Counted from the first letter of the stretch, positions 11,043-11,285 are shown. The stretch: DNA of 16,694 nucleotides from a virus (IMGVR_UViG_2563366825_000009:1-16694); one strand, 5' to 3'. Translations and numbers: made by a program. The notes: generated from the sequence alone by a model not told the origin.

Positions 11043-11072
11043 TTGACAAATCCACATCGACGGGGATATATT
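11043..11072 (+). promoter_or_regulatory. Near-consensus sigma70 promoter (TTGACA-N18-TATATT)
   Basis: -35 TTGACA at 11043-11048 and -10 TATATT at 11067-11072; 18-nt spacer. Confidence 0.5.
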
Positions 11073-11110
11073 CCGCTTCATGGTGCTGAACACACCACAG
11101 CAAGCGGAAA

Positions 11111-11137
11111 CCGCCCCGTCAGTCATGCGGTTTTTTT
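11111..11137 (+). terminator. Terminator-like hairpin plus T7 run about 35-60 nt downstream of the 11043 promoter (attenuator or 3' end of a short RNA)
   Basis: CCGC (11111-11114) / GCGG (11127-11130) stem with a 12-nt loop, alternatively pairing with CCGC..CATG at 11073-11082, followed by TTTTTTT (11131-11137). The stem is short, so strength is uncertain. Confidence 0.4.
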
Positions 11138-11285
11138 GTGTCCATTTTTCAGATATGGTCGGGTAGCGCGTATACCGAAAAACAGCCGTAAGGCTAAGGA
11201 TACGGGCCGACTTGCTGCGGTGTTCAAGTACCTGACCACCCTGCTGAACACAGGGTTATCTGAACAAATCAGCAAGGACATAAAA

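Follow-up and report, generated by a model that had tools for sequence, protein, structure and literature searches.

An isrK-like promoter and leader upstream of a c4-like antisense RNA and an AntA antirepressor gene: a probable prophage immunity module that escapes current RNA family models

The window analysed here, that is, the whole 16,694-nt stretch of viral DNA IMGVR_UViG_2563366825_000009:1-16694, is lambdoid prophage DNA from the early region, with a CI-like repressor encoded at 5953-6666 and RecT and YqaJ encoded downstream of an antirepressor gene (ant). The initial annotation, made from the sequence alone, had placed the start of an ant-like reading frame at 11286, and this start is supported by an AAGGA Shine-Dalgarno sequence at 11274-78, by the AntA domain of the product (94.9 bits) and by RefSeq homologues, which begin at the aligned ATG. 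An IS21-family element, ISEc12 (istA/istB, approximately 7852-10460), is inserted just upstream of the ant module, which it separates from the CI-like repressor region; it is 99.8-99.9% identical to copies on many plasmids. A 183-aa ORF at 10469-11020, between this element and the promoter described below, had no Pfam match. At 429-603, on the minus strand, the otherwise prophage-like DNA contains a full-length match to the sok antitoxin RNA of the hok/sok toxin-antitoxin system (RF01794, 118.4 bits). The features of the ant module are as follows.

11043-11072, plus strand: sigma-70 promoter TTGACA-N18-TATATT, homologous to PisrK of Gifsy-1
11081-11097, plus strand: a1 hairpin, UGGUG[CUGAACA]CACCA, from the minimum-energy fold and pair covariation
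11087-11093, plus strand: putative decoy site a1, UGAACAC, mostly within the hairpin loop and complementary to a'
11098-11104, plus strand: putative decoy site b1, CAGCAAG, single-stranded and adjoining GCGG
11104-11114, plus strand: small hairpin, GCGG-AAA-CCGC
11111-11137, plus strand: intrinsic-terminator-like hairpin followed by U7 (11131-11137), conserved and with compensating stems
11138-11156, plus strand: spacer between the terminator-like element and the c4-like RNA, beginning with conserved GTGTCC
11157-11245, plus strand: c4-like antisense RNA of the Rfam sRNA-Xcc1 family (RF02221)
11211-11217, plus strand: site b', CUUGCUG, in a single-stranded stretch of the c4-like RNA
11220-11226, plus strand: site a', GUGUUCA, in a single-stranded stretch of the c4-like RNA
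11245-11278, plus strand: target region on the ant mRNA, comprising a2, a second a2-like site and b2
11245-11251, plus strand: a2, UGAACAC, with the second a2-like site, UGAACA, at 11261-11266
11270-11276, plus strand: b2, CAGCAAG, overlapping the Shine-Dalgarno sequence
11286-11921, plus strand: antirepressor gene of the AntA/AntB family, 211 aa (Pfam AntA, PF08346)

The near-consensus promoter proposed initially is well founded: TTGACA at 11043-48 and TATATT at 11067-72, separated by an 18-nt spacer, agree with the consensus at 11 of 12 positions. Both hexamers and the length of the spacer are kept in eight homologues while the spacer sequence varies, and similarity to Stx-converting phages and E. 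coli prophages starts precisely at the -35 element. The Gifsy-1 promoter reads TTGACA-N18-TATATT-CCCAGT-A(+1), and the sequence GGGG(C/A)TATATTCC is common to Gifsy-1 and the window. Placed by homology with this mapped isrK promoter (TTGACA-N18-TATATT-N6-A(+1)), the transcript of the window is predicted to start at C11079/A11080, 7 nt past the -10 element of what is a PisrK-type promoter. The position of the start bears on the pairing of 11073-82 (CCGC..CATG) with CATGCGG at 11124-30, by which the transcript had been thought to close on itself. This pairing shrinks to CCGC:GCGG, and because the start predicted from the isrK promoter is at C11079/A11080, CCGC 11073-76 probably lies upstream of the RNA, in the stretch of 6-7 nt that separates the -10 element from the start. 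A CCGC straight after the -10 hexamer is found in many modules and is absent from the L029, L054 and L128 types; it is complementary to the GCGG located 3' of b1 (CCGCUU/AAGCGG in the window, UGACCG/CGGUCA in L013). It is probably not transcribed from the 11043-11072 promoter, and could be a GC-rich discriminator or be relevant only to transcripts entering from upstream.

Downstream of the predicted start, the leader carries the a1 hairpin, in which all five pairs change on both sides among 22 leaders (GGUG/CACC, AAGG/CCUU, CGGC/GCCG), and then b1, which is the exact reverse complement of b' and has the same sequence as b2. The internal GCGG-AAA-CCGC hairpin of the initial annotation was recovered at 11104-11114, with a predicted energy of -4.7 kcal/mol; its stem is near-invariant in the family and its loop of 3-6 nt varies freely. 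The reading frame that extends mechanically from TTG 11043 over 11043-11285 had been judged non-coding, rightly so, given that it is open in the window only and that its homologues have two to four in-frame stops or frame shifts.

What the first reading of the leader had lacked was its key component, a structured RNA of 85-89 nt located between the T-run and the ant start codon, together with the complementarities in which it takes part. This RNA (11157-11245) belongs to the Rfam family sRNA-Xcc1; the match extends over the full length of the model (positions 1-87 of 87) and reaches 69.5 bits, the gathering score being 53 (E = 4e-11). The C4 model (RF01695, threshold at least 45 bits) gave no match in the window at E <= 10, with 68.8 bits for the P1 control. 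An acceptor-like long closing stem (GGUCGGGUA/UACCUGACC) is followed by a 3' ACC(C) tail, and within the RNA are a hairpin with a GUAA tetraloop and a second hairpin; the acceptor-like stem and ACC tail are the sequence features expected of a substrate for release by RNase P. An own promoter for the c4-like RNA was considered and rejected, as the promoter scan found no promoter-like site on the plus strand between 11073 and 11157.

Sites a' and b' of the c4-like RNA are exact reverse complements of UGAACAC and CAGCAAG, respectively, and each of these heptamers occurs both in the leader and in front of ant. As in the P1 immI class, a' and b' are thus complementary to a1/b1 upstream and to a2/b2 downstream, with b2 at the ribosome-binding site. 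Two such three-way heptamer matches were obtained in 0 of 20,000 shuffles and one match in 31 of 20,000. Duplexes of the c4-like RNA were predicted at -18.5 kcal/mol with the ant target and at -21.9 kcal/mol with the leader, and cognate duplexes were predicted to be the most stable in most cases. The sites also change together. Eight modules of E. coli prophages comprise four types of b1, b' and b2 (CAGCAAG/CUUGCUG, TGCAAAG/CTTTGCA, TCGAAAG/CTTTCGA and ATACAAG/CTTGTAT), whose alignment shows no change in the a sites, in the two hexamers of the promoter or in the length of its spacer (18 nt). The wider samples described below added more than ten further b types, for more than 15 specificity types overall, as well as co-varying a types (TGAACAC, CTCAAAA, TTCAAAA, TAAGAAA). 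A close copy of the module was present in 116 of 5,426 complete E. coli genomes, for example in that of E. coli O103:H2 12009 (NC_013353.1, 2919593-2919850). The three-way complementarity between the c4-like RNA, the leader and the ant ribosome-binding site explains the purpose of the leader.

These data also bear on the view that the promoter-like and terminator-like sequences are there by chance, or form a leader-peptide attenuator, with no link to the antisense RNA. Such a view could draw on the folding of the leader, which is poor (see below), and on ATG 11080, which opens a short reading frame. Yet this ATG is not conserved (relatives have CAAGGTG or CTCAGGTG) and indels break the frame, so that the leader-peptide attenuator was rejected: a conserved short ORF controlling alternative hairpins is not what the relatives show. 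Together with the shuffling result and with the conservation and co-variation of the element across many genera, the comparative data already refute this explanation, to which we give next to no credence.

The CATGCGG followed by seven T residues that had suggested a terminator is present at 11124-30 and 11131-37. Two hairpins would end at this run, CCGC[12 nt]GCGG or, at 11116-11130, CCG-U-CA[GUCA]UG-CGG; the small hairpin competes with the outer pairing of the terminator, while the alternative hairpin can coexist with it. By prediction the terminator is weak (4-9 pairs, a 12-nt loop, about -7 kcal/mol), and it is on account of the 12-nt loop that a generic terminator scan did not call the hairpin at 11111-11130. 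Folding of the leader predicts a hairpin before the U-run, at an energy not significantly better than that of shuffled sequence (z = -1.46). The only terminator-like call of the generic scan in 10400-12000 was at 11183-11196 on the minus strand; it is probably an artefact, being the reverse complement of the GCC-GUAA-GGC hairpin of the c4-like RNA with an A-run.

Comparison of modules provided a different kind of evidence. Our first sample of leaders had been chosen by a pattern that fixed CCGC..GCGG, which made co-variation of the stem uninformative there, and it was replaced by two samples picked independently of the leader. The first comprised regions upstream of Ant homologues in viral contigs (31 unique), of which 30 have a hairpin and T5-7 between b1 and the structured RNA, with four compensating stems (CCGCA/UGCGG, CCAAC/GUUGG, CCACG/CGUGG and AGACGC/GCGUCU). 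A fifth stem, ACACGC/GCGUGU, occurs in the isrK-type leaders of L005 and Gifsy-1. The second sample consisted of genomes matched solely via the internal hairpin of the Xcc1 RNA. A first version of this hairpin pattern gave only five matches on viral contigs, and the genome scan gave many GC-rich chance matches, 14 of 111 testable matches being real by a strict heptamer test. All 14 genuine sRNA-Xcc1 modules, which come from other genera (Pseudomonas, Stutzerimonas, Xanthomonas, Accumulibacter and Haemophilus, plus module L333), have the full architecture, namely the a1 hairpin, b1, GCGG, N3-6, CCGC, N8-13, GCGG, a U-run, the structured RNA, a2/b2 and ATG. Since it is conserved with compensating stems in two leader-independent samples, the hairpin with its U-run is, on comparative grounds, a conserved structural element and not a product of chance. 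The U-run is the predicted 3' end of a short RNA of ~57 nt. Conservation of the promoter, the hairpin and the T-run extends beyond E. coli prophages to modules of Xanthomonas and Pseudomonas, and judged by this conservation the element in the window is a real regulatory element.

The loop of the terminator is itself conserved. The motif (A/G)CCCG(U/A)CAG.. (11116-11125 in the window) is strongly maintained from E. coli to Pseudomonas and Xanthomonas, even where the stem is CCAAC/GUUGG, which suggests a sequence-specific role, for example in the binding of a protein or Hfq, or as a cleavage site. Immediately 3' of the T-run, P1 and the Xcc1-type leaders share (A/G)TG(T/C)C(C/T), in the forms GTGTCC, ATGTCC or ATGCCT, and Gifsy-1 has ATTGTCG (window 11138-11143; 413-418 in L008, which is P1; 961-967 in L213, which is Gifsy-1). 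The spacer that begins with this motif is presumably a 5' leader trimmed in processing.

The closest described counterpart is the isrK-orf45(STnc1160)-anrP locus of Gifsy-1, where IsrK is a short RNA whose 3' end is at a Rho-independent terminator, a fraction of transcripts reads through to give the isrK-orf45-anrP mRNA, and the ~80-nt STnc1160 is processed from the read-through transcript in a PisrK-dependent manner (Hershko-Shalev et al., PMC4825925). Acting in trans, IsrK raises translation of the antirepressor more than 100-fold, and it is required for induction of the prophage (PMC4825925). Both loci have the homologous TTGACA-N18-TATATT promoter, a short 5' RNA (in the window a predicted one) with a1/b1-type sites that ends in a hairpin and a U-run, and a structured antisense RNA ~20-26 nt further 3', followed by an antirepressor gene. 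In Gifsy-1, the isrK match (79.3 bits) coincides with a c4-a1b1 match (48 bits), and a C4 match (69 bits) lies 26 nt past isrK, before the antirepressor-like gene. Like IsrK, the leader of the window is complementary to the RNA just downstream, whose processing is predicted and which precedes an antirepressor gene; at the position of the IsrK terminator the window sequence has the conserved hairpin and U7 with compensating stems. A mixture of terminated and read-through transcripts has been shown for IsrK and would be expected for the window.

There are nonetheless clear differences. The window leader has one hairpin before b1 and a predicted length of ~57 nt, whereas IsrK has two hairpins and 77 nt; the stem of the putative window terminator is shorter and its loop measures 12 nt; and the downstream RNA scores as sRNA-Xcc1 in the window and as C4 in Gifsy-1. 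The window has no upstream ORF resembling orf45, and its b2 directly overlaps the ant Shine-Dalgarno sequence, whereas the published model for Gifsy-1 involves the small upstream ORF (orf45) and alternative mRNA structures (PMC4825925). The window leader escapes the isrK model (RF01394, gathering score 50 bits), which gave no match in 10950-11400 even at E <= 10, while the positive controls Gifsy-1, L005 and L007 scored 79.3, 54.9 and 50.9 bits. Nor was there a match in the window, again at E <= 10, to c4-a1b1 (RF03163, at least 46.7 bits), a model with two hairpins, a1 in the second and b1 immediately 3', although the corresponding functional feature, a1 in a hairpin loop with b1 immediately 3', is present. 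Because the isrK and c4-a1b1 models do not match, homology of the leader is argued from its promoter, its position and its architecture. The window leader appears to work like IsrK while lying outside isrK as currently modelled. The c4/IsrK-type antisense switch is known, and what is new is a variant form that the current isrK, c4-a1b1 and C4 models do not recognise.

The immI region of P1/P7 has the same order of parts as the window with near-identical spacing, and in both it is the b (and a) sequences that determine specificity. The annotated order in P1 is P51b, a1, b1, c4, a2, b2 and icd-ant (for the promoters P51a/b and ant1/2 of immI, see Citron and Schuster 1990, as cited in PMC2864571 and PMC12197685). 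The c4-like RNA is built like P1 c4, and both have the acceptor-like stem and 3' ACC tail that resemble an RNase P substrate. Between b1 and c4, P1 reads GCGG-ACAA-CCGC-N13-GCGG-TATTTTTGTGTCC, including GTGTCC after the T-run, so that a GCGG-N4-CCGC-N13-GCGG-UAUUUUU-GUGUCC element (as it stands in P1) is a feature of both loci, with CCGC-N13-GCGG-UAUUUUU at the position of the terminator. P1 differs in that it has an additional hairpin at the 5' side, a C1 operator and a second promoter, and in that the icd ORF separates b2 from ant; neither of the P1-type Rfam models (RF01695, RF03163) matches the window.

In phage P4, too, an upstream site (seqA), a processed antisense RNA (the CI RNA, seqB) and a downstream site (seqC) are carried on one transcript, and SeqA has been called a structural homologue of IsrK (PMC4825925); according to the summary given there, CI brings about premature termination of transcription. 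The likeness to sar/ant of P22 is confined to a small antisense RNA repressing translation of the antirepressor: transcription of sar runs on the opposite strand, over the ribosome-binding site of ant, and sar has neither an a1b1 decoy nor a tRNA-like processed RNA and is unrelated in sequence and architecture.

The founding member of the sRNA-Xcc1 family is a stable 88-nt RNA of Xanthomonas campestris (RF02221), described as trans-acting and virulence-linked with predicted host or plant targets (PMC2996969). The Xanthomonas and Pseudomonas members share the leader of the window, its a2/b2 sites and a downstream ATG. One preprint places sRNA-Xcc1 upstream of an ORF6N gene, and isrK and c4 upstream of a BRO gene. 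Our literature search found no published link of sRNA-Xcc1 to c4, and neither the Xcc1-type leader nor the three-way co-variation was described there, within a coverage that was incomplete and had a key 2011 paper outside it.

Taken together, we consider it most likely, with a probability of roughly 0.7, that a c4/IsrK-type antisense immunity module, with 11043-11146 as its promoter and 5' leader, controls the AntA antirepressor of the prophage by the decoy mechanism set out below; the identities of the parts are held more firmly than this picture as a whole. The parts themselves, their complementarity, their co-variation and the homology to the P1 and Gifsy-1 modules are what we observed. From these we infer that transcripts do terminate, that the c4-like RNA is processed and in which direction the regulation works. 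Transcription would begin near A11080, and the first ~57 nt would present a1 in a hairpin loop, b1 in single-stranded form and a weak intrinsic terminator (hairpin and U7). Transcripts that stop at the U-run would form a short decoy RNA corresponding to IsrK of Salmonella, and those that read through would carry the c4-like RNA (11157 to approximately 11241) and the ant mRNA. The c4-like RNA would presumably be excised as a stable species of ~85 nt, its 5' end made by RNase P as for P1 c4, and pairing of its a'/b' with a2/b2 of the ant mRNA would cover the Shine-Dalgarno sequence and keep the antirepressor off. With both of these sites, and a predicted binding to the c4-like RNA that is at least equally good, the short leader RNA would titrate the repressor RNA, so that the ratio of decoy to repressor RNA and ant mRNA would follow from how leaky the terminator is. 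Since no separate promoter for the c4-like RNA was found, this RNA would depend on read-through, and hence the terminator must be leaky, a requirement that the predicted weak hairpin fits. The proposal of the initial annotation, a short terminated RNA or a terminating leader before ant, agrees with the published, homologous isrK of Gifsy-1, but in-silico support for conditional termination was weak and inconsistent. The predicted weakness of the terminator and the poor folding score of the leader speak against the decoy model, as do the missing matches to isrK and c4-a1b1 and the absence of an orf45-like ORF. By analogy, one published observation does not fit simple titration: in Gifsy-1, co-expression of STnc1160 strengthened the effect of IsrK (PMC4825925).

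It may alternatively be that no useful termination takes place and that the leader is only the 5' part of a precursor, in which a1/b1 pair with a'/b' in cis, guiding folding or processing or keeping the RNA inactive until it is excised. The weak terminator would agree with this, as would the fact that much transcription must cross the U-run if the c4-like RNA lacks a separate promoter. There are also precedents, as c4 of P1 is, according to its annotation, processed from transcripts that cross the equivalent hairpin, and 'structure A' of Gifsy-1 is a cis pairing of IsrK with the downstream region (PMC4825925). Nevertheless, U5-7 stands directly 3' of the hairpin in essentially every module, with compensating stems, and this is hard to explain unless termination or the 3' end matters. 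In Salmonella, moreover, short IsrK is abundant, terminated and acts in trans (PMC4825925). We therefore regard a leader that serves processing alone as improbable.

The near-invariance of the sequences beside b1 raises another explanation. P4 CI acts by premature transcription termination, which in the window is a candidate only: the leader could be an RNA-sensing attenuator like P4 CI/seqA, in which the mature c4-like RNA pairs with a1/b1 of the nascent leader. As b1 adjoins or overlaps GCGG 11104-07, this pairing would remove the GCGG-AAA-CCGC hairpin and free CCGC for the terminator, so that the immunity RNA would shut off its own synthesis and transcription of ant; such a function may coexist with that of a decoy. 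In a modelled RNA (11080-11133), blocking 11087-11104 raised the probability of the CCGC:GCGG pairing from 0.16 to 0.89, and the same trend was seen in L016, L018, L029 and the CCAAC/GUUGG type. The GCGG-N3-6-CCGC-N8-13-GCGG series, variable in its loops, is otherwise almost unchanged between E. coli and Pseudomonas, Xanthomonas or Haemophilus, b1 always adjoins the first GCGG, and the authors of the IsrK study proposed the same idea for STnc1160 (PMC4825925). However, the hairpin at 11116-11130 also ends at the U-run and coexists with GCGG-AAA-CCGC, which for this reason is not a true antiterminator. Blocking a1..b1 was without effect in the modelled Lyz_1, ST865_2 and L102 leaders, the CCAAC/GUUGG variant has no matching upstream GUUGG, and strong terminators are predicted for P1 and IsrK both with a1/b1 free and with a1/b1 occupied. 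GCGG-AAA-CCGC as an antiterminator, a promising model in the window, was hence rejected on its failure in several relatives, and attenuation by a sensed RNA is in our judgement a doubtful though not negligible prospect.

A broader and equally tentative proposal is that two things hold jointly: that the whole sRNA-Xcc1 family is a second large c4-type branch with IsrK-like decoy leaders, and that the leader is an RNA-sensing attenuator, in which binding of the mature immunity RNA to the nascent leader, next to the near-invariant GCGG/CCGC/GCGG, switches termination on. If this were true, more than 15 b 'alleles' and the tandem arrays in Stx prophages would form a specificity-coded network that decides whose antirepressor fires among co-resident prophages. 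An antirepressor can bring about prophage induction with no need for the repressor to be cleaved in the SOS response. Shiga-toxin-converting phages, like other prophages of E. coli, were found to contain related modules, in many cases as tandem arrays of differing specificity, and a private antisense RNA and decoy leader for each ant, BRO or ORF6N gene would offer a handle on prophage cross-talk and on induction of Stx phages. It is further suggested that the sRNA-Xcc1-family RNAs of Xanthomonas, Xylella and Pseudomonas are immunity RNAs of mobile elements with cis-linked targets. The window-type leader, invisible to current Rfam models, could become a new family.

Tandem antirepressor-type genes (Ant, AntA/AntB, BRO, ORF6N) were observed in L001 (phage Lyz12581Vzw, 2177-4410) and in L004, L005 and L006 (290-2100), most of them with a private Xcc1- or C4-type RNA of its own b specificity directly upstream. 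In Xylella fastidiosa, five copies of sRNA-Xcc1 are reported to lie ~380 nt apart (PMC12189769). In L007 (E. coli VL7S7, 1201-1662), a leader and c4-like RNA with the CAGCAAG specificity of the window are followed not by a2/b2 and ant but by a second full module (isrK 1425-1498, C4 1524-1607) and then Ant; here two immunity RNAs follow one another, and one of them, an 'orphan', could act in trans to repress the ant gene of the window.
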